Shown here piece after piece: positions 9,939 to 62,612 of a stretch of 64,000 nt of DNA. The translations under genes were made by a program, and so were the position numbers. Every line of letters begins with the position of its first letter. Position 1 is the stretch's first letter. The DNA is taken from assembly GCA_001513335.1 (NCBI GenBank), contig LFTO01000116.1, positions 536 to 64,535 on the forward strand, written 5' to 3'. Below the pieces are notes generated by a model. It searched no databases and had not been told where the DNA came from. It saw only the letters and a list, made by a program, of their open reading frames with translations. The stretch is from Clostridiales bacterium DTU086 (GTDB lineage Bacteria > Bacillota > DTU086).

Positions 9939-10400
9939 TTATATATCCACTTTTCTTTTATCCAGCCAGTTTAAAGTGTATGTTAAAAACAGCCCGTATG
10001 CAGAAGCAGAGATGAAGTGGGATACAGCAGCAGCGAAAGTGTGCTGTGTGAGGGTAGGAAGGTCCAACACTATGGAAACTGCATATATGAAAAACCAGGC
10101 AAATATTCCATAGATCCAGCCTTTTACCAGGTAATTGCCGCTCGTCGTTTTGAGTAACAAACTGGAAAAAATGACTCCCAGAAAACCGGCAAAGAACAAC
10201 TGTCCCAGCTGGGCAAAGACTATTTCTGGAGTATTAGCGGGAAGACGCCCGTAAATTACCACAGAAGCCCAGTCTGACAACCGTTCAAGGTGCAGTCCCA
10301 AAAGTATCGCTGTCCAATCAACTATATTCATTGCAATTCCGCCGGCAATGCCGCCGATAAACCCTGCTGTAATCCTGTCCTTAATGATTGATCCCTCCAA
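9939..10400 (-). CDS. hypothetical integral membrane protein
   Basis: 153 aa with about 4 hydrophobic helices. No recognisable motif. Confidence 0.5.
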   Translation of the reverse strand: MEGSIIKDRITAGFIGGIAGGIAMNIVDWTAILLGLHLERLSDWASVVIYGRLPANTPEIVFAQLGQLFFAGFLGVIFSSLLLKTTSGNYLVKGWIYGIFAWFFIYAVSIVLDLPTLTQHTFAAAVSHFISASAYGLFLTYTLNWLDKRKVDI

Positions 10401-10634
10401 TAAAATCCTTTTGCAGCATTATGAAGATATAATATATTGTGCATATTTTGGGAAGAGATTATTTACAATGAAGGAAAGAAGGGGCCTGATTTATGTTCTG
10501 TATTCATGGACTTAATTTTATTAGAACACTTATTAAGGCCGTCAGCAAAAGATAGGGGGAAGTTTTTTTATTTACAGACAGTATGAGCGGGGCCAAAAAA
10601 CTTGTCGGCCGGGGATAAGTAGTTACTTTCAGGC

Positions 10635-10662
10635 AAAATAAAAGACGAGGCAGAACCTCGTC
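10635..10662 (-). terminator. intrinsic terminator downstream of tRNA-Arg
   Basis: On the minus strand, GACGAGG-loop-CCTCGTC followed by a T-run (an A-run on the plus strand). Confidence 0.6.
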
Positions 10663-10680
10663 TCAATACAATTCAAAATC

Positions 10681-10757
10681 TGGTACGCCTGGGGAGACTT
10701 GAACTCCCGACCCCCGGACTCGGAATCCGTTACTCTATCCAACTGAGCTACAGGCGC
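10681..10757 (-). tRNA. tRNA-Arg (anticodon CCG)
   Basis: The reverse complement folds as a cloverleaf: acceptor GCGCCTG, D-arm GCTC/AGTTGG, anticodon loop TTCCGAG (CCG), T-arm GGGAG-TTCAAGT-CTCCC, encoded CCA. Confidence 0.9.
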
Positions 10758-10770
10758 ATATCATAAGTCT

Positions 10771-10799
10771 ATTATAATTAAAGTCCTTCAACTAGTCAA
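10771..10799 (-). promoter_or_regulatory. sigma-A promoter for tRNA-Arg (TTGACT-17-TATAAT)
   Basis: Minus strand reads TTGACTagttgaaggactttaatTATAAT, about 13 nt upstream of the tRNA 5' end. Confidence 0.75.
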
Positions 10800-11148
10800 A
10801 TTTCGGAAAGAAAAGAGCCCCTATAGTTTGATGTATGTACATTATACACCGGAAATTTAACATAGTGAAAAAATCTTTTTTTCATTGAATAATATGTGGT
10901 CTCGCCGGGGAATTAACCGTTGAGGATGGGGGAAAGCTGGTTCTAACCTGTCATCTAAGAGGAGATAGAATGTTTTTCCGGCAAACCTGTGGCGTAAAAC
11001 AAGAAGAGGACAGGTGGCGCTATTTTCAGGTAAAAAATGGTGGGGAATTAATATGGTATTTTTCCGTATTTCCCTTGCTTATTAGGAACCATTGTGCTAC
11101 TCTTGCAGTAGAATATTGTATACAAAATACCTTTTAGGAGGTTTCATG

Positions 11149-11274
11149 TATGCAGTACTTGGTTACCTGGAGTGAAGGCGAAGAAGTCGCTTATCTGATT
11201 CTGGGTGAACAGGATTTATGCCGCCTCGGAATGGACGACAAGAATTACATTATTACGGAATTCAGCACTCATTA
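11149..11274 (+). CDS. small ORF, 41 aa, hypothetical (MQYLVTWSEGEEVAYLILGEQDLCRLGMDDKNYIITEFSTH)
   Basis: AGGAGG RBS 8 nt upstream of the ATG. An intrinsic terminator follows directly. Below the 60-aa cutoff of the ORF track. Confidence 0.4.
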
Positions 11275-11315
11275 AGATTAATAATTTAGTTTCTTTATCC
11301 ATTATTGCATTTTAA

Positions 11316-11339
11316 CGCCGGTTTTCCCGGCGTTTTTTG
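11316..11339 (+). terminator. intrinsic terminator after the small ORF
   Basis: GCCGG-TTTTC-CCGGC followed by TTTTTTG. Confidence 0.7.
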
Positions 11340-11637
11340 TTTTTCTGTTGGTGCACCTCCCGGTTTTGAGCTACAGTACTTGCTCGGAATTCTAGTTATC
11401 ATTTACAATTCGCCTGCAGGGTGCTGAGGAGCTCTTTGCGCTTGGAGATCCTGCGTACCTCCTTTAGCAGGAGCAATAACTTTCAAAAAAAACGTATCCG
11501 CCAGTCGCCCCAATGAAGGCTTTGTTTTTTCTCCCCAAAGGACTTTTTTGATTGATTTAATGCTCCAGGGGGTTAGTATTGCGCCTGTGGGGAAAATTAT
11601 ATATGATTAACTTTAAATACCGCTGGAGGAAAAAAAT

Positions 11638-12645
11638 ATGAAGGTAAGACAAGTCGGAGAGTTTGGACTAATAGATATCATAAAAGACAATACACTGGTA
11701 GACCCGTCTTCGGTTGTCGCCGGGATCGGAGACGATACCGCTGTTTTGAAACACCCTAGTGGGAAATTACTGTTGGCTACAACAGATATGATGATTGAAA
11801 ATATTCACTTTATTATATCCGGGGACAACGGAAGGCAGATTGGCTACCGTGTTATGGCCGCCAATGTCAGCGATATCGCTTCCATGGGGGGACGCCCGAC
11901 ACATGCCATCATTTCCATAGGTGTTCACCCGGATATGGAAGTTTCCTTTGTGGAGAGCGTTTATGAGGGGATGAAAGCCTGTTCCCGGGATTATGGGGTA
12001 AATATTGTAGGGGGGGACACAGTGACTTCCCCTGATAATTTAGTATTAAATGTTGCTCTTCTGGGGTTGGTGGATCCGGACAAATATCTTCCCCGTTCCG
12101 GTGCCAGGCCGGGAGACCTTGTTATGGTTACCAACGTTTTAGGAGATTCCCGTGCAGGGCTGGATATTGTCCTGGGCAGGTGCAGTATTTCCCAGGAGGG
12201 AGAGAAGTATCTTTTGGACAGGCACTATTACTCCAATCCCCGGGTTGAAGAAATGGCTGCCGGAACAGCCTGCGGGGGGATTACTGCGGCAGACGACATC
12301 AGCGACGGTCTGGGGAGCGAAATACATGAAATTGCTGATGCCAGCGGCGTTGGGGCAATTCTTAAGTTTGAAGATCTACCAGTATCCGACTATACCCGGG
12401 AAGTTGCCGAGAAAACTAACACCGATCTCATAGAGTACTGCCTCTTTGGCGGTGAAGACTTCGAGGTGGTTATAACAGTCGATCCGCGGAAAGCCGATGC
12501 CCTTGCGGAAGCTGTTGAAAGTGCTACTGGTACAAAACTAACTGTGGTCGGTGAAATTGTTGACAAGTCAGAAGGGGTTAAACTCCTGAGAAATAACAGC
12601 CTTCATGTCCTTCCGAAGAAGGGCTACAGTCATTTCAAAAAATAA
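11638..12645 (+). CDS. thiL: thiamine-monophosphate kinase
   Basis: 335 aa. The N-terminus GEFGLIDII..GIGDDTAV fits the AIR-synthase-related/PurM-like ThiL fold. Confidence 0.8.
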   Translation: MKVRQVGEFGLIDIIKDNTLVDPSSVVAGIGDDTAVLKHPSGKLLLATTDMMIENIHFIISGDNGRQIGYRVMAANVSDIASMGGRPTHAIISIGVHPDMEVSFVESVYEGMKACSRDYGVNIVGGDTVTSPDNLVLNVALLGLVDPDKYLPRSGARPGDLVMVTNVLGDSRAGLDIVLGRCSISQEGEKYLLDRHYYSNPRVEEMAAGTACGGITAADDISDGLGSEIHEIADASGVGAILKFEDLPVSDYTREVAEKTNTDLIEYCLFGGEDFEVVITVDPRKADALAEAVESATGTKLTVVGEIVDKSEGVKLLRNNSLHVLPKKGYSHFKK

Positions 12646-23075: not shown

Positions 23076-23522
23076 TTGTCTAAGTCTTTTGAAGATATTT
23101 GCCTGGAACTGAAGAACAGGGAATACAAACTTACACCTCAACGTCAGGTTATTTTAAGGGTGTTTATGAACAACAGAGGCAGCCATTTAAGTGCCGAAGA
23201 CGTGTACTCCATGGTAAAAAGACACAACCCGGATGTGGGATTAGCCACAGTGTACCGGACTCTCGATTTACTGGCTGATTTAGAAGTCCTGCAAAAAATG
23301 GACTTTGGGGACGGCAAAGCCCGGTTTGAATTAAACGATACTGAGGCACACCATCATCACCACCTTATCTGTTTAAATTGCGGAAAAGTGGAAGAATTTG
23401 ATGCCGACCTTTTAGAGCGGCTGGAAGCCAGTATCGAAGAAAAAACAGGTTTTGAAATTATTAATCATAGGCTGAAGTTTTTTGGGTACTGTACTGATTG
23501 TAAAGGGTTGGAGCAAAGTTAA
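23076..23522 (+). CDS. fur: Fur-family metalloregulator
   Basis: Close to Bacillus Fur: LTPQR..HLSAEDVY..LATVYRTLDLL..HHHHHLICLNCGKVEEF..HRLKFFGYCTDC. Confidence 0.85.
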   Translation: MSKSFEDICLELKNREYKLTPQRQVILRVFMNNRGSHLSAEDVYSMVKRHNPDVGLATVYRTLDLLADLEVLQKMDFGDGKARFELNDTEAHHHHHLICLNCGKVEEFDADLLERLEASIEEKTGFEIINHRLKFFGYCTDCKGLEQS

Positions 23523-43061: not shown

Positions 43062-44075
43062 ATGATCTCTCTATCCCTGAAGGAAACAGAAAAAAGTTCC
43101 GAATGCAGCATTGATGCGGTTTTGGCTGCTGTTTGTCCTTCCATTATAAAGGATTTTTTAATGAAAATGGCTCCGGAACAAAGGAATCAAGTACAGGAAC
43201 TGCGCCTGAGACAGGACAGGCCTTTAAGCATTTTGCTGGACCAACGGGAATGTTTCTTAACGGTGAAGGGAGAGCCGACCTTTGACCCCCTGGCAGGGTA
43301 TTACATTACCAAGACCGATATTGATAGAGTCTTTCAAAGCATTACCCGCAATTCCGTATACGCCCTTGAGGAAGAACTGCGCAACGGCTATGTGACTATT
43401 GCCGGGGGCCATAGAATCGGGTTTACAGGAGAAGCTGTGGTTGTAGGGGGAAAAGTAAAAAACCTGAAAAATATATCTTGCCTCAATATCAGAATTGGGA
43501 GAGAGGTAAAAGGCTGCGCAGATAAAGTTCTGCCTTGGATAATTAACAGGCAGAATAATGCAGTTATGCACACACTAATTATTTCACCGCCAAAGTGCGG
43601 AAAGACAACCCTTCTCAGGGACATTATCCGGCAGTTAAGCAACGGTATACCCAAGCTTGGTTTCCCTGGTGTCAATGTGGGCGTAGTGGATGAAAGATCG
43701 GAGTTGGCCAGTTGTTACATGGGCCTTCCTCAAAAAGAAATAGGCATTAGAAGTGATGTCCTGGATAAATGTCCCAAAGCGGAAGGAATGTATATGCTGG
43801 TACGTTCCATGTCCCCACAGGTAATTGCCACTGATGAAATCGGGAGAAGGGAAGATGTGGCTGCAGTTCAAGAAGTCCTTAACGCAGGAATCAAATTGAT
43901 TACATCCGTTCACGGAACCAACCCGGAAGATATAAAACGGCGGCCTGTAATGGGAGAGATTATGGATATGCAGTTGTTTGAGCGACTGGTCGTTCTTGGG
44001 AGGTCCCAAGGGGTAGGTACTTTGGAAGAAGTGATCGATGGGACTACAGGAAGATCTTTGTTTCAAAGAAGGTGA
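43062..44075 (+). CDS. spoIIIAA: stage III sporulation protein AA (ATPase)
   Basis: Walker A SPPKCGKTTLLRD. Conserved SpoIIIAA layout. Confidence 0.9.
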   Translation: MISLSLKETEKSSECSIDAVLAAVCPSIIKDFLMKMAPEQRNQVQELRLRQDRPLSILLDQRECFLTVKGEPTFDPLAGYYITKTDIDRVFQSITRNSVYALEEELRNGYVTIAGGHRIGFTGEAVVVGGKVKNLKNISCLNIRIGREVKGCADKVLPWIINRQNNAVMHTLIISPPKCGKTTLLRDIIRQLSNGIPKLGFPGVNVGVVDERSELASCYMGLPQKEIGIRSDVLDKCPKAEGMYMLVRSMSPQVIATDEIGRREDVAAVQEVLNAGIKLITSVHGTNPEDIKRRPVMGEIMDMQLFERLVVLGRSQGVGTLEEVIDGTTGRSLFQRR

Positions 44076-44599
44076 GACCCATTATAAAAATCACTGCTTC
44101 GTTATTGATAATAATGTCCTGCGGAATGGCCGGGTTGATTATGGCCCATTCCTATGCTTCCAGGCCGGATCAGCTGAAAGCTCTAATTTATGCCTTAAAA
44201 ATGCTGGAAACCGAAATTGCCTATACCCTTACTCCTCTCCCGGAGGCCCTTTTTAGAGTCGGGAAAAGGGTTGGTGGTGAAATTGGTGAGTTTTTTATAT
44301 CTGTAGGCACCCAATTAAGTCACGAAAACGCACCTATATGCGGAGAGGTCTGGGATTACAGTCTAGCCGGATTGAAAGAAAGTACTTGTCTCACTACCGG
44401 CGACCTGGGTATTTTACGCAATTTTGGTAATAACCTGGGGTTATCTGACAGGGAAGACCAGATAAAAAACCTTAAGCTCACCCAGGAGCAGTTGAACAAT
44501 CATTTGTATTCTGCTGAAAAGCTCCGGGAAAAGAATCAGAGAATGTGGCGCACTGTTGGTTTTTTAGCTGGATTGGCTGTAGTGTTTATCCTTTACTAG
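44072..44599 (+). CDS. spoIIIAB: stage III sporulation protein AB
   Basis: Position in the operon. N-terminal TM helix. About 175 aa. Confidence 0.8.
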   Translation: MRPIIKITASLLIIMSCGMAGLIMAHSYASRPDQLKALIYALKMLETEIAYTLTPLPEALFRVGKRVGGEIGEFFISVGTQLSHENAPICGEVWDYSLAGLKESTCLTTGDLGILRNFGNNLGLSDREDQIKNLKLTQEQLNNHLYSAEKLREKNQRMWRTVGFLAGLAVVFILY

Positions 44600-44617
44600 A
44601 AGAAAGGAGAATCCCGA

Positions 44618-44815
44618 ATGGAAGTAGATATAATTTTCAAAATTGCTGGTATCGGCATAATAACAGCTGTTCTTCACAGTATTTTGAAAGAATTCGGAAA
44701 GCAGGAACTTGCCCAGCTCACAACCCTTGCAGGTGTTGCTGTATGCCTCCTAATGGTAATCGGTATTTTGCAGGACCTTTTTGCAATTGTCAGGACGGTA
44801 TTCCAACTTTACTAA
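44618..44815 (+). CDS. spoIIIAC: stage III sporulation protein AC
   Basis: 65-aa two-helix membrane protein, MEVDIIFKIAGIGIITAV. Confidence 0.85.
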   Translation: MEVDIIFKIAGIGIITAVLHSILKEFGKQELAQLTTLAGVAVCLLMVIGILQDLFAIVRTVFQLY

Positions 44816-44825
44816 GAGGTGTGCT

Positions 44826-45212
44826 ATGGAAATATTACAGGTTGTAGGTTTAGGGTTCATATCGGTTGCGCTCCTAACCGTGCTTAAACAGCAGAAACCG
44901 GAAATAGCAGTCCTCTTGAGCATTGCCGCAGGCGTTACAATTTTTTTGTTTGTCCTGGGCAAGGTTTCCAGCATTATACAGGTCTTGGAAAATCTAGCCC
45001 GCAGTGCTGATGTAAACAACTTTTATTTGACTACGATACTAAAAATTGTCGGTATTGCCTATATTGGTGATTTTGGAGCCCAGGTGTGCAGGGATGCTGG
45101 AGAGTCGGCTATAGCGTCAAAAGTTGAATTTGCAGCCAAGGTACTGGTACTGATAGTAGCTCTGCCCATCGTGGTAGGCTTGCTGGAGACAATAACCAGG
45201 CTGCTTCCATGA
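44826..45212 (+). CDS. spoIIIAD: stage III sporulation protein AD
   Basis: MEILQVVGLGFISVALL start. The ORF track begins at 44781 in the same frame. Confidence 0.85.
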   Translation: MEILQVVGLGFISVALLTVLKQQKPEIAVLLSIAAGVTIFLFVLGKVSSIIQVLENLARSADVNNFYLTTILKIVGIAYIGDFGAQVCRDAGESAIASKVEFAAKVLVLIVALPIVVGLLETITRLLP

Positions 45213-46396
45213 GATTGCTTATGAAAAGACTAGTCATTTTTTTGGTAATAATATCTAGTACATTGCTTTTTCCTGTTAGTGCTCCAGCACAGGAAGAAAC
45301 GGATCTGCCGGCCACAAACCTGGAGAGGCAGCTCGAAAGCCTCGACCTTTCCGAGCTCCAGCAGTTTATTGAGGAAATTGAAAAGGATGTGGGTTCATAT
45401 ATTCCCGATTTTGGTCTGGAGAGTGTGATTGAGGACATTCGCAGCGGAGATCTTGACTTTAATTTTGCCGGTTTTATAAAAGGCTTAATAGAATACTTGT
45501 TTCATGAATTAATTGCCCATTCTTCCCTTTTAGGCCGTTTAGTAGTTCTGGCAGTAATCTCTGCCGTCCTATATAACCTTCTTGATGCCTTTGAAGGTTC
45601 GACAGGTAGAATAGCTTACACTGTTGTCTATCTTGTACTGATTACTATTGCCCTGGGGTCATTTTCTGCTGCTGTAAAAATCGGGAGTGAGGCAATTACC
45701 CAAATGGTGAATTTTGTACAAGCGCTCCTTCCTGTCCTGTTGACCCTTCTTGCGGCAATTGGGGGTATCAGCTCTGCGGCTATTTTACATCCTTTTATTA
45801 TTGTTGCACTGGGCCTTCTAGGAACACTGATAAAAAATTTTGTGTTTCCTCTGATTTACCTGTCAGCAGTACTGGGAATTGTAAACCATATTTCTGAAAG
45901 GTTTAACGTTTCACGGCTTGCAGGTCTGATGAAACAAATCAGCGTTGCTTCTTTAGGTATTTTCCTGACTCTTTTTGTGGGTTTTTTAGGTTTACAGGGG
46001 ATAGCCGGTGCCGTTGCTGACAGTGTGACGTTAAAAACTGCCAAATTTATGGCAGGGACATTTGTCCCCGTGGTTGGGAAAATACTGGCCGATGCCACGG
46101 AAGTAGTACTGGGTACTTCACTGTTGATAAAAAATGCTGTTGGAGTTGTAGGAATAGTAATCCTGTTTATTATTTGTGTTTTTCCGGTGATCAAGATTAT
46201 AGCCATGGTGCTGGTCTACAGGCTGGCGGCAGCTTTGGTACAGCCTATAGGGGATAGCAAAATTGCCGGAGCCCTTGATACAATGGCAGGTATGCTTACT
46301 CTGGTATTTGCCTCGGTTGTAGCAGTTGGATTCATGTTTTTCCTGGCAATTGCAGTAATTATCGGACTGAGCAATATTAACGTTATGCTGAGGTAG
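45209..46396 (+). CDS. spoIIIAE: stage III sporulation protein AE
   Basis: Signal peptide plus a polytopic membrane domain. 395 aa. Operon position. Confidence 0.85.
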   Translation: MRLLMKRLVIFLVIISSTLLFPVSAPAQEETDLPATNLERQLESLDLSELQQFIEEIEKDVGSYIPDFGLESVIEDIRSGDLDFNFAGFIKGLIEYLFHELIAHSSLLGRLVVLAVISAVLYNLLDAFEGSTGRIAYTVVYLVLITIALGSFSAAVKIGSEAITQMVNFVQALLPVLLTLLAAIGGISSAAILHPFIIVALGLLGTLIKNFVFPLIYLSAVLGIVNHISERFNVSRLAGLMKQISVASLGIFLTLFVGFLGLQGIAGAVADSVTLKTAKFMAGTFVPVVGKILADATEVVLGTSLLIKNAVGVVGIVILFIICVFPVIKIIAMVLVYRLAAALVQPIGDSKIAGALDTMAGMLTLVFASVVAVGFMFFLAIAVIIGLSNINVMLR

Positions 46397-46420
46397 TCTT
46401 TTTATATAGAGGGGATAATA

Positions 46421-47044
46421 ATGGATGTCTTAAAAGAAATGGTCCGGAACCTGGCAGCAATAATAATCCTTACTTCCTTCCTGGAAATGCTCCTTCCAAA
46501 TACCAAAATGAAAGGCTATACCCGGCTTATATTAGGGCTTTTTGTAATCGTAATCGTACTCAATCCCGTCCTGAATTTTTTGGACAGCGGTACGGGATAT
46601 AGTATTCAGGCCTGGTCATATCCCTCAAAAAACCATGAACTGAATGCCATTCTTGAGGATGCCCAGGAAATTACTGCACAATCTCAGAGATCGATATTTA
46701 ACGAGTACCGCAGTAAAGTGGAACAGCAGATCGCAGCCCTGGTGAGACTTTCCCCGGAAGTGAGCCGTGCGGACGTTGAAATAAAAATTGGGGAAGGCAT
46801 CTCCCTGGCAGAAGAAGGCAGGATTGAAAGAGTTAAAATCACCGCTCATGTTAAGGATCGGGATACTGCTGGAAAAGGGGAAAGTAAACATGAAAATAGC
46901 AATTCCATTGAGTTGGACAGCAGATATGATCCTGTAAAAAATCGGCAACAGGAGCGGGAAGAACTGAGAGAAAGGATCAGGTCAATAGTTGGGGATTTCT
47001 TCGGGTTGAAGCTGGACCAGGTTGATGTGCAACTGGAAAATTAG
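46421..47044 (+). CDS. spoIIIAF: stage III sporulation protein AF
   Basis: Two N-terminal TM helices. 207 aa. Operon position. Confidence 0.8.
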   Translation: MDVLKEMVRNLAAIIILTSFLEMLLPNTKMKGYTRLILGLFVIVIVLNPVLNFLDSGTGYSIQAWSYPSKNHELNAILEDAQEITAQSQRSIFNEYRSKVEQQIAALVRLSPEVSRADVEIKIGEGISLAEEGRIERVKITAHVKDRDTAGKGESKHENSNSIELDSRYDPVKNRQQEREELRERIRSIVGDFFGLKLDQVDVQLEN

Positions 47045-47061
47045 ATGGAGGTGCTGTTGTT

Positions 47062-47676
47062 ATGAAAAAAAAAGCTGGCCAGTATATTAATTTTTCCAGG
47101 AAAAAGCTGCCGCTCCTTATAGTTTTATTTCTTATTGGTGTCTTACTATTGGTTGTCAGTAGCTTTATTCCCAGCGGCCAACGGGGCCATGATGTGGTTG
47201 GGGAATTACCTGTAGTGGGAAAAGAGCAGGAAAGTACAGCCGACCCTGAAAGTACTTCCGTGCTGGCCCGAGCAGAAACAGAAATGGAAAACCGGTTGGA
47301 GGCAATTCTATCTACAATTGAAGGGGTCGGAAGTGTTTCGGTAAGTGTAACCCTGGAAAACGGTCCGGAGTATATTTATGCAGTAAATGAAAATATTAAC
47401 GAAAGTAAAATAGAAGAAAAAGATAACAGCGGGGGCCACCGTATTACTACAGAAACCACAAACAGTGACCAGATGGTACTGGCTCAGCCGGCGGATATGG
47501 GCGGGGGCCAGCAGCCGGTGGTTGTAAAAGAAATTAAACCTAAGATTGCCGGTGTTCTTGTTGCTGCCGAAGGTGCGGATAATGCTGAAACCAGGATAAA
47601 CTTGTCCAGGGCTGTCCAAACCGTGTTAAATATTCCGGCTCATAAAGTAAGCGTACTGCAAAAAAACATTGAATAG
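47062..47676 (+). CDS. spoIIIAG: stage III sporulation protein AG
   Basis: N-terminal TM helix. Conserved C-terminal AGVLVAAEGADNAETRINLSRAV. Confidence 0.85.
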   Translation: MKKKAGQYINFSRKKLPLLIVLFLIGVLLLVVSSFIPSGQRGHDVVGELPVVGKEQESTADPESTSVLARAETEMENRLEAILSTIEGVGSVSVSVTLENGPEYIYAVNENINESKIEEKDNSGGHRITTETTNSDQMVLAQPADMGGGQQPVVVKEIKPKIAGVLVAAEGADNAETRINLSRAVQTVLNIPAHKVSVLQKNIE

Positions 47677-47691
47677 GAAGGAGGGATAGAG

Positions 47692-48306
47692 GTGATGATT
47701 TTCACCAGTCGAAGGACCGCATTAGTAGTAGCATTGTTTATTATAGCCCTTTTCTTGGTGATAGGGTTTATTATCTATGGGACAATACCCAACCTAAAGG
47801 ATGATAAAACCCCTGTGCACGGCGAAACAATTATTAACGGCAAAGAAAATCCCGGAGAAGGTTCAGAGGAAGAGGAAGAGGGGACGGTCGTTACAGGGGA
47901 AAAAAGCAGTGTCCCTGGAAAACTTCCTATTGAAATTAAAGGGGAGCAGACAAGCTCCGATGATGATTTTTTTGCCAATTACCGCCTGGACAGGGAAAGG
48001 GTCCGGGGCCACCAGGTAGAACTGCTCCAAGAAGTAATCAATGATCCCAATTCAGATGCGGGCATGCGCAAGGAAGCACAGGATAGGTTGATTCAAATTT
48101 CCGAACGTATGGACAAAGAACTGCAGCTGGAGGCACTTATTAAGGCAAAAGGATTTAACGAGGCGGCGCTATTTATTCAACCGGAGTCAGCCACTGCAAT
48201 TCTGGAAAAGGACGGGATGGTTGAGAGCGACGTAGCAGTTGTGGCAGATATGATTTCCCGTGTTACAGGATATAAGCTGGAAGACATCGTGGTAATTCCC
48301 AAATAG
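47692..48306 (+). CDS. spoIIIAH: stage III sporulation protein AH
   Basis: N-terminal TM helix. Acidic linker. YscJ/FliF-like C-terminal domain. Operon position. Confidence 0.8.
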   Translation: MMIFTSRRTALVVALFIIALFLVIGFIIYGTIPNLKDDKTPVHGETIINGKENPGEGSEEEEEGTVVTGEKSSVPGKLPIEIKGEQTSSDDDFFANYRLDRERVRGHQVELLQEVINDPNSDAGMRKEAQDRLIQISERMDKELQLEALIKAKGFNEAALFIQPESATAILEKDGMVESDVAVVADMISRVTGYKLEDIVVIPK

Positions 48307-48349
48307 TGTATATAATTCTGAAATATTATGTATACACGTTGTAAAGATA

Positions 48350-48576: not shown

Positions 48577-50451
48577 GTGAAAAAAATCGGTATAACAGAC
48601 ACCACTCTTAGAGATGCTCACCAGAGCTTGTGGGCAACAAGAATGAGCACGGCAGATATGATACCCATTTTGGAGAGAATTGATTCTCTGGGTTATTCCT
48701 CTGTAGAAGTTTGGGGGGGAGCAACCTTTGATGTTTGCCTGAGGTACCTTAACGAATGTCCCTGGGAAAGGTTGCGTATTCTTAAAAAATACTTTAAGAG
48801 GACACCTCTACAGATGCTTTTGCGTGGGCAGGCATTAGTAGGTTATACCCATTACCCTGATGATGTGGTGGACAGCTTTGTAGCCAAATCCGTGGAAAAC
48901 GGAATTGACATTATCCGGATTTTTGATGCCCTCAATGACCTCCGGAACATGGAAAAGTCAATTACAGTTGCCAAGAGAGAAGGGGCTCATGTTCAGGGTG
49001 CCGTTGTGTACACAGTAAGCCCTGTTCACAGCATTGAGCATTATGTTGACGTAGCACTGCAGCTCCAGGAGATGGGAGTTGACTCCCTCTGTGTAAAAGA
49101 TATGGCTGGTTTATTGACTCCTTATGTTGCCGGAAAGCTGGTTAAACTCCTTAAGGAAAAGTTGAACATACCCATACACCTTCACAGCCATTATGTTGGT
49201 GGGCTGGCTTTTGGGGCCTACATCAAAGGTATTGAAGCAGGTGCGGATAATATTGACTGTGCTTCCGTTCCTTTGGCCTTCGGTTCTTCCCAGCCTCCTG
49301 TGGAGACCATCGTTCGTACATTGAGTGAAAGTGGCTATGATACAGGTCTTGATCTACACGACTTGTTTGAAGTTGCCAGCTACTTTGAAGACCTGCGCAA
49401 GAAAAACGGTTTCCAGAGAGGGGTTACCCGGATTACTGACATGGGGGTTTTTGAACACCAGGTACCCGGGGGAATGATATCTAACCTGGTGAGCCAGCTT
49501 AAGGAACAGAACGCTGCAGAAAAGATCAATGAGGTACTGAGAGAGATTCCCAAGGTGAGGAAGGAACTTGGGTATCCGCCCCTCGTTACCCCTACCAGCC
49601 AGATAGTAGGAACCCAGGCAGTATTAAACGTTTTGACTAAGGAAAGATATAAGCTTATCCCCGGCGAAGTTAAAGCATACGTAAGGGGGGCCTACGGGAA
49701 ACCACCGGCAAAAATTGACGAGAAAATACGTGAAAAGATAATGGGTGACGAGCCCATATACGAGGGAAGACCGGCAGATCTATTAGAGCCTGGGTTGGAG
49801 AAAGCCAGGGAAGAAATAAAGGACATGGTATCTTCCGAAGAAGACGTGCTGTCCTATGCACTGTTCCCACAGATAGCCAGAAAATTTTTCTCTAATCCCT
49901 GTGAAACTAAGTTTGAATCTGCTAAGCAAGAAGTGGCTGGCTCCATGGATCATATTGTCCTTGAGGAGGTCGCTGGTATAGAAGAGGAGGACGAAAGTAT
50001 GAAATTGACTGATATTAAAGAACTCTTAAAGGCGCTGAACGAAACGGGTACTACCGAGTTTAACTATGAAGGTGACGGTATGCGGCTGGTAGTACGGAGA
50101 GGAAAAGTTGTTGCTGTTGAAGATGAAAAAGGGATAGACATTTCCGTGGAAGAAAAACCTGCTGTGGAAGCTCCCCCTGGGGAACCTCCAGTAGAGGAAG
50201 TGGAAGATGACATTGTTGTTATAGAAGCCCCTATGGTAGGTACCTTCTATCGTGCTCCCGCCCCCGATGCACCGCCTTTTGTGGAAGTCGGTTCAAAGGT
50301 AAAGAAAGGACAGACCCTGTGCATTGTTGAGGCCATGAAGCTGATGAATGAAATTGAGACTGATGTAGACGGCGAAGTTGTTGAAATTCTAGTTGAGAAT
50401 GCGCAGCCTGTTGAATATGGCTGTCCACTGTTCAAAATAAAGAGAGGGTAA
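48577..50451 (+). CDS. pyruvate carboxylase subunit B/oxaloacetate decarboxylase alpha-like (5S carboxyltransferase fused to a biotin carboxyl carrier domain)
   Basis: GTG start. TIM-barrel carboxyltransferase region [12 protein letters not shown]-terminal biotinyl domain [13 protein letters not shown]. Confidence 0.85.
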
Positions 50452-62162: not shown

Positions 62163-62612
62163 TTGAAAGCAGAGCGGCAGAGGGCCATTTTGAGACTTAT
62201 TGCAGAAGAGCCGATAGAGACACAGCTGCAGCTGGCCAATAAACTTAAAAGTAAAGGTTTTAAAGTTACGCAGGCTACCATTTCCCGGGATATTAAAGAA
62301 TTGGGTTTGATAAAAATTCCCGGAAAAAACAATAAATATAATTATGCCGCACCCCCGGAACACCGTGTTACCAACGTTTTTGGCCGTTTGGAAAGGATGT
62401 TTCAAGATTCTGTTGTCAGTTTTGAAGACAGTGAAAACCTGATACTGGTAAAAACCCTTCCCGGGACAGCACATGCGGTTGCTTCGTGCCTGGATAATAT
62501 TACCTGGAAAGAGATCATAGGCACAGTGGCAGGCGATGATACTATTCTGGTAATTATTAAACCTAAAGAAGCTGTAGGAGAAGTAATGGAGAAGTTCCGG
62601 TCGCTCTTGTAA
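62163..62612 (+). CDS. argR: arginine repressor
   Basis: KAERQRAILRLIAE..QLQLANKLKSKGFKVTQATISRDIKELGL; the C-terminal GTVAGDDTILV is the arginine-binding region. Confidence 0.9.
   Translation: MKAERQRAILRLIAEEPIETQLQLANKLKSKGFKVTQATISRDIKELGLIKIPGKNNKYNYAAPPEHRVTNVFGRLERMFQDSVVSFEDSENLILVKTLPGTAHAVASCLDNITWKEIIGTVAGDDTILVIIKPKEAVGEVMEKFRSLL

Follow-up and report, generated by a model that had tools for sequence, protein, structure and literature searches.

A conserved GTATAC palindrome, a candidate repressor operator, precedes the gene for an undescribed family of small acidic proteins in Desulfotomaculia and related bacteria

In Geobacter, the repressor HgtR acts on gltA through the dyad-symmetric site TTGTATACAGTATACTAA, which is protected from +11 to +23 and lies downstream of a sigma-70 promoter (PMC2817479), and deletion of this site derepresses the gltA promoter (Ueki & Lovley 2010, PMC2817479). 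HgtR is a repressor of 62 aa annotated as CopG-like and encoded by a monocistronic gene with an RpoN promoter and its own terminator, and TCA-cycle and energy genes make up the regulon marked by the HgtR motif (PMC2817479). The GntR-family repressor Atu1419 binds ATGTATACAT, which overlaps -10 boxes and fits the GntR-family signature (N)yGT(N)xAC(N)y (PMC7797058), and the ohrA operator of the MarR-family OhrR of B. subtilis, TACAATTAAATTGTATACAATTAAATTGTA, contains ATTGTATACAAT (PMC2651793). Here we describe a palindrome of the same GT-N-AC class (GntR/MarR/HgtR-like) as these three experimentally defined operators, in that it is dyad-symmetric and overlaps the promoter or early transcribed region. 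It precedes a gene for a 41-residue protein in the window, by which we mean the whole 64,000-nt stretch of DNA that was analysed.

The ORF of 41 codons lies on the + strand at 11150-11275, including its stop codon TAA (11273-11275), and encodes MQYLVTWSEGEEVAYLILGEQDLCRLGMDDKNYIITEFSTH. The first-pass annotation had placed the ATG at 11149, one base too early, and had reported an AGGAGG with 8-nt spacing and an own terminator of the form GCCGG-TTTTC-CCGGC-T6. Both signals are present. The Shine-Dalgarno (SD) sequence AGGAGG is read at 11136-11141 (+; 8-nt spacer to the ATG, TTTCATGT), and a terminator scan found an intrinsic terminator at 11314-11344 (+) with an 8-bp stem, a TTTTC loop and a T-run; its hairpin (11314-11334) has the stem AACGCCGG/CCGGCGTT and is followed by TTTTGTTTTT, and the GCCGG core starts at 11317, 41 nt past the stop codon. 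A putative sigma-A-type promoter is placed at 11075-11103 (+), with TTGCTT (11075-11080) as -35 and TACTCT (11098-11103) as -10 element across a 17-nt spacer, and the start site is inferred from it. Both hexamers are poor, agreeing with the consensus at three of six positions each, and a promoter scan of the window did not list this promoter; the assignment is based on the position shared with orthologous loci, not on hexamer match. We regard 11075-11344 as probably a self-contained monocistronic gene consisting of sigma-A-type promoter, palindrome, strong SD, ORF and terminator, and a transcript so bounded would be ~230 nt long. The gene is single-copy in the window, as a profile of 121 homologues matched only this ORF in the six-frame translation (hmmsearch, E = 4.7e-21). 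The earlier expectation that standard annotation could miss the ORF did not hold, since NCBI and JGI already call it "hypothetical protein": an identical protein is deposited in NCBI as MGI6554007.1, 'MAG: hypothetical protein ACOX2P_01070 [Bacillota bacterium]', and appears among JGI gene calls. The identical protein was found on 13 contigs with the same neighbours.

It is almost certain that this ORF is a real protein-coding gene. Between the window and L001, the locus of the closest diverged orthologue, dN/dS is 0.21 (Nei-Gojobori), and against L013 the synonymous sites are saturated (pS 0.85) while pN is 0.18. Substitutions between the window and its orthologues fall mostly at third codon positions, and all indels among orthologues are whole codons, so that the reading frame is kept in homologous regions. 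The proposal of a genuine stand-alone small-protein gene, made from the single sequence, is thus borne out by the substitution pattern, the in-frame indels and ~200 homologue clusters. The start codons differ across loci (ATG, GTG or TTG), each behind an SD, and a G-rich SD is present in 15/15 orthologous loci. The DNA similarity between the window and L001 begins ~55-75 nt 5' of the start codon and ends at the stop codon. At the same place after the ORF, 12/15 loci have terminator-like hairpins, whose sequences are unrelated. An orthologue of 74% identity, found on two Logan contigs, has a GTG start behind AGGAGG and its own terminator of another sequence; thiL is downstream there, too, but the upstream genes differ (NfeD/Band_7). 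'Clostridia bacterium 41_269', the closest named relative in the genome collection, keeps the order tRNA-Arg(CCG)(-), 43-aa orthologue, terminator and thiL, with a TTG start behind an AGGAGG SD and a ThiL of 63% identity.

Profile searches gave 12 homologues, then 19 representatives (50% identity) and then 199 clusters (90% identity). The named sources are Desulfotomaculum, Desulforamulus, Desulfofundulus, Desulfallas, Desulfoscipio, Desulfocucumis, Desulfolucanica, Moorella, Thermodesulfitimonas, Desulfitobacterium, Desulfitispora, Heliorestis and Candidatus Desulforudaceae, and all database entries are named 'hypothetical protein'. The family is undescribed, is conserved in many anaerobic Firmicutes that form spores and is, as far as sampled, restricted to Desulfotomaculia, Moorellia, Desulfitobacteriia, heliobacteria and relatives. 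Its members have a median length of 41 aa and a median net charge of -6. T6, W7, G10 and V13 are invariant in 121 sequences and E9, E12, Y15 and I34 nearly so, giving the consensus M-x-YLVTW-I-EGEEV-x-YR-F-V...DKN-Y-I-V-T-x-L over ~40 aa (the position after W is written x or I). The window protein fits this family by its full-length profile match, the invariant residues, its length of ~40 aa and its stand-alone gene. AlphaFold2 with the 121-sequence alignment predicted, at a pLDDT of 90.2 and a pTM of 0.65, strands at 2-9 and 12-19, paired in a hairpin around the EGEE turn, then a helix at 20-25 and a third strand at 34-38, in line with the small beta-rich acidic peptide suggested at first.

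The first reading had also recognised no family for this peptide, and databases agree with it. Searches of Pfam-A and NCBIfam assigned the window protein to 0 families and gave only sub-threshold matches for the 29 relatives, and a PDB sequence search and a fold comparison gave no significant match; Protein A matches in the PDB were rejected as an artefact of repeat summation. The window protein had no match in PHROGs or PADLOC, and the only PHROGs matches were isolated ones with E > 0.01. With the single protein and with alignments of 29 and 121 members, none of these database searches gave anything above threshold. A type I toxin or small membrane protein was rejected, as no hydrophobic helix was predicted, the net charge is -6 and the scan gave no opposite-strand promoter. 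Five of the 29 members (P0011, P0019, P0016, P0013 and P0020) showed sub-threshold matches to the Ets domain (PF00178) at profile positions 17-46, the best with 21.8 bits (E = 2.4e-4) against a gathering score of 26.9. These positions represent the beta1-beta2-alpha2 part of the Ets fold, with the pattern ITW-G-EFKL...EVA..WG..KN. The match spans 30 of the 81 positions of a eukaryotic domain and does not cover the DNA-recognition helix. Membership was therefore rejected, with scores below gathering and no full winged helix-turn-helix, and the likeness is probably a local convergence of beta-hairpin/helix sequence patterns.

The palindrome is new relative to the first-pass annotation, and aligning the upstream regions shows it in every locus examined. 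In the window it is the imperfect palindrome TAGAATATTGTATACAAAATACC at 11109-11131, a putative repressor operator at ~+1 to +20 that is conserved in orthologous loci, with the core TTGTATACAA at 11116-11125 and GTATAC at 11118-11123. In 15/15 loci GTATAC stands 5' of the start codon, usually in the form (T)TGTATACA(A). Anchoring the loci on it gave the flanks a-G-n-A-T-n-n-T-GTATAC-A-a-n-a-t-n-C, an imperfect palindrome of ~20-22 bp in which A at -5 and A at +6 are kept in 15/15 loci, T at -4 in 14/15, T at -1 in 13/15 and G at -7 in 12/15. The left arm is more conserved than the right, so that the motif is less like a perfectly symmetric dimer site, and RNA-level or asymmetric recognition is conceivable. 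Desulfofundulus carries a tandem form (TTGTATACAAGTATACAA / GTATACAAGTATACAA), and Desulfitobacterium a perfect 20-bp palindrome (GTATTATGTATACATAATAC). A weight matrix applied to 171 kb (the window and non-redundant loci) gave sites only upstream of family genes. A second palindrome copy, AAGTATATTGTATACACGATTGG (L001 1768-1790, matrix score 19.1), precedes the main site of the same small gene by 180 nt and could be an auxiliary operator for looping; the window has no equivalent of it. The other TGTATACA of the window, at 48329-48336 (within 48321-48343, AAATATTATGTATACACGTTGTA), is intergenic after spoIIIAH (47692-48306) and ~15 nt upstream of a TTGCAT-17-TATAAT promoter of a pyruvate carboxylase/oxaloacetate decarboxylase subunit gene (48577-50451). 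It scores low with the matrix (11.3), and two occurrences of TGTATACA in the window against 0.57 expected are not significant.

The palindrome keeps a place between promoter and SD. A TTGnnn-N16-18-TAnnnT arrangement is found at the equivalent position 5' of the motif in 13/15 loci, and some orthologous promoters are strong (e.g. TTGCCA-17-TAAAAT, TTGTCA-17-TACAAT and TTGCGG-18-TATAAT). In 12/15 loci, 14-18 nt separate the end of the TAnnnT -10 element from GTATAC; the exceptions are L023, where the motif abuts the -10 element (0 nt), and L025 and L026, where it is 22 nt off, and thus the promoter spacing is not fixed. The motif precedes the start codon by 28-36 nt in 13/15 loci and the SD by 4-8 nt, and in L029 (Heliorestis), where as much as 71 nt lie between it and the start codon, it still stands 16 nt from the -10 element. 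We considered that the motif may be an alternative sigma-factor element, comparing it with the sigma-E, -K, -G, -F and -H consensuses, and rejected this because the TAnnnT-GTATAC spacing varies (0, 14-18 or 22 nt) and all loci but two have a normal TTGnnn-N16-18-TAnnnT promoter. The test for hairpins and covariation in the palindrome gave no conserved RNA hairpin and no covariation: the predicted hairpins of the motif are weak and inconsistent, ranging from 0 to -6.9 kcal/mol, with -0.2 in the window. We favour the reading that the palindrome is a DNA operator, with a probability of about 0.6 on sequence grounds, because the hairpins are weak, compensatory changes are not seen and the motif of L029 keeps its distance to the promoter.

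The small gene is a separate unit in all contexts, and its neighbours vary among thiL, feoAB, murT-gatD/prkA-yhbH-spoVR, degV and nadE. Genome and metagenome scans gave 3 and 4 loci. The commonest context is murT-gatD upstream and prkA-yhbH-spoVR downstream, seen in D. reducens, Desulfoscipio and Desulfallas, and with an insertion in Desulforudaceae, while Thermodesulfitimonas has murT-gatD upstream only. In Desulfofundulus feoAB is downstream, once with spoVR divergent, and in Desulfitobacterium and Heliorestis the neighbours are a 4HBT thioesterase gene with degV or nadE. thiL is directly downstream in the window, L001 and L013, and three genes away in Moorella. The window neighbours named in the first-pass annotation, a divergent membrane gene and tRNA-Arg upstream and thiL downstream, were all found: a DUF6789 membrane-type gene (9939-10400, -) and thiL (AIRS/AIRS_C; 11638-12645, +) by domain search, and tRNA-Arg(CCG) (10681-10757, -), which has its own promoter (TTGACT-17-TATAAT) and terminator. 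The nearness to thiL and tRNA-Arg is lineage synteny and not a functional unit, because the neighbours differ in other genomes.

Around the small gene, a 55-codon ORF at 10970-11137 with a GAGGAG SD runs through the promoter and the palindrome. It was rejected and is probably spurious: L001 and L013 do not conserve it, NCBI does not call it, and the protein collection lacks it. Between the terminator of the small gene and thiL, the window has a hairpin-forming element of ~70 nt (11400-11469; -27.5 kcal/mol for 11385-11480), single-copy and without a further copy in the window, and with no counterpart in L001 or L013. The sister strain L003 (3266-3404) and its relatives have it as a tandem duplicate with a 74-nt period and 74% identity, and this duplication accounts for the 92-bp length difference. 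Farther away, the window contains spoIIIA genes within 43062-48306, including those for a SpoIIIAC/AD-like protein (44781-45212) and SpoIIIAH (47692-48306), which indicates that the organism is an endospore-forming Firmicute.

Several other explanations were weighed against the operator reading. TGTATACA may act in the mRNA leader as the site of an RNA-binding protein or small RNA, or as a 5' stabiliser, and so control translation or mRNA stability. The steady distances to the start codon and the SD, the better conserved left arm and the L023 hairpin of -6.9 kcal/mol would suit such a role, and a start site ~7 nt past the inferred -10 element would place the motif within the transcript. We nevertheless consider it unlikely: the hairpin energies are inconsistent between loci and close to zero in the window, the symmetric positions are conserved in sequence without compensatory changes, the region has no Rfam match, and the same class of palindrome is documented as a DNA operator. 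Moreover, in L029 and L031 the motif holds its distance to the promoter and not to the SD. RNA could also be the main product, with the ORF incidental or the locus dual-functional, since a short transcript (~230 nt) between a promoter and a terminator of its own would be expected, and a weak sroD match covers the 3' end of this transcript and the terminator (30.6 bits; gathering score, 50). This is very improbable, as the match is essentially the terminator hairpin, the interspecies conservation ends at the stop codon with unrelated 3' UTR and terminator sequences, the substitutions follow a protein-coding pattern, and across classes the family is recognisable only at the protein level. Even less credible is that the ORF is a leader peptide or upstream element of thiL, such as a thiamine-related attenuator, although it immediately precedes thiL in the window, L001 and L013 and lies three genes upstream in Moorella. 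A strong intrinsic terminator separates the two, and a permissive Rfam scan of 10300-11800 gave no TPP riboswitch and no RNA family apart from the tRNA. The block GGGGAAAATTATATATGATTAAC..AAATACCGCTGGAGGAAAAAAATATG, conserved directly upstream of thiL (window 11590-11637, L001 2310-2357), is promoter-like with an SD and indicates that thiL has its own promoter and SD. In addition, the peptide is under purifying selection (dN/dS 0.21), unlike typical leader peptides, and in most genomes the gene is far from thiL; the differing neighbours show that it is not a thiL leader.

A further alternative concerns the protein, which might be a sporulation or stationary-phase accessory tied to PrkA-YhbH-SpoVR or to cell-wall amidation by MurT-GatD, perhaps as a modulator or substrate of PrkA. 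In D. reducens, Desulfoscipio and Desulfallas the gene is flanked by murT-gatD and prkA-yhbH-spoVR, as it is, with an insertion, in Desulforudaceae, and it is divergent from spoVR in Desulfofundulus thermobenzoicus; its carriers belong to endospore-forming lineages, with spoIIIA genes in the window, and Thr6 is invariant. On the other hand, the gene is preceded in every case by a promoter of its own, which looks sigma-A-type and not sigma-E, -F, -G or -K, and is usually followed by a terminator of its own, and its neighbours in Moorella, Desulfitobacterium, Heliorestis and the window are unrelated. A gene order shared within one class can also be inherited synteny, and we judge this tie improbable.

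If the palindrome is a DNA operator, a putative dimeric DNA-binding repressor would sit on TGTATACA and block initiation or promoter escape, and the protein would be made only once the repressor is released. The strong SD would then give a burst of the 41-residue acidic protein, which may stay in the cytoplasm, dimerise and/or dock on a partner protein rather than nucleic acid. Tentatively, we take the protein for a partner-binding regulator, judging from its charge and size, the acidic EGEE turn, the invariant Thr6, Trp7, Gly10 and Val13, and the hydrophobic residues on both sheet faces; partner binding is suggested because the small size and the acidity leave no room for catalysis or nucleic-acid binding. 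Genomic context offers PrkA/YhbH/SpoVR or MurT/GatD as the sole partner leads, and weak ones. A bolder and doubtful possibility is that the family is an unrecognised, tightly repressed mini-regulator of Desulfotomaculia, Moorellia and Desulfitobacteriia, controlled by a dedicated HgtR-like or winged-helix repressor at TGTATACA, induced by a signal such as energy/hydrogen status or sporulation entry, and modulating PrkA/YhbH/SpoVR, MurT/GatD or RNA polymerase.

Proteins under 50 residues are poorly characterised, and the present family is a clean case with ~200 clusters, a confident predicted fold and no described relatives. The gene architecture is ordinary; it is the undescribed family together with the highly conserved operator-like motif that makes the small gene experimentally tractable, and the palindrome offers an experimental handle on binder, signal and partner. 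Among the carriers are acetogens, sulfate reducers, dehalorespirers and heliobacteria, in which regulation is little known. Should the operator be that of an HgtR-like or OhrR/GntR-like regulator, the small gene would be a marker of that regulon in the carriers; if nothing more comes to light, it stays an ordinary conserved hypothetical gene, already called by annotation pipelines.

With regard to what might bind the palindrome, no GntR or MarR gene adjoins the small gene in any locus, and no regulator gene is consistently adjacent. The regulators among the scanned mid-size ORFs of the window were only a Fur-family protein and ArgR (23076-23522 and 62163-62612), and to our knowledge the consensus of neither fits the palindrome. 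We likewise know of no fit to the consensuses of LexA, Fur/PerR, Rex, ArgR, CodY, cre, NrdR or the DnaA box. Literature matches to TTGTATACAA were mostly Gateway att sites. Among described systems, the 10-mer of Atu1419, ATGTATACAT, is present exactly in the Desulfitobacterium locus, within TATTATGTATACATAATA, and the ohrA operator of OhrR shares ATTGTATACAA with the window palindrome; what these two have in common with the palindrome is the DNA signature alone. As to the protein, the closest systems include small acidic partner-binding beta-beta-alpha-beta proteins such as T7 Gp2, RNA polymerase epsilon/YkzG and phi29 p56. The closest analogue in both sequence and position is the HgtR site, which has the TTGTATACA core in common with our palindrome and lies at about the same position. 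The two systems differ in that HgtR controls a multi-gene regulon in Geobacter whereas the present motif was found only before one small gene, and in that HgtR itself binds DNA whereas the small protein is acidic and not a plausible DNA binder. The precedents of HgtR, Atu1419 and OhrR do not name the binder here, but they show that such a palindrome just past the start site works as a roadblock for a repressor.
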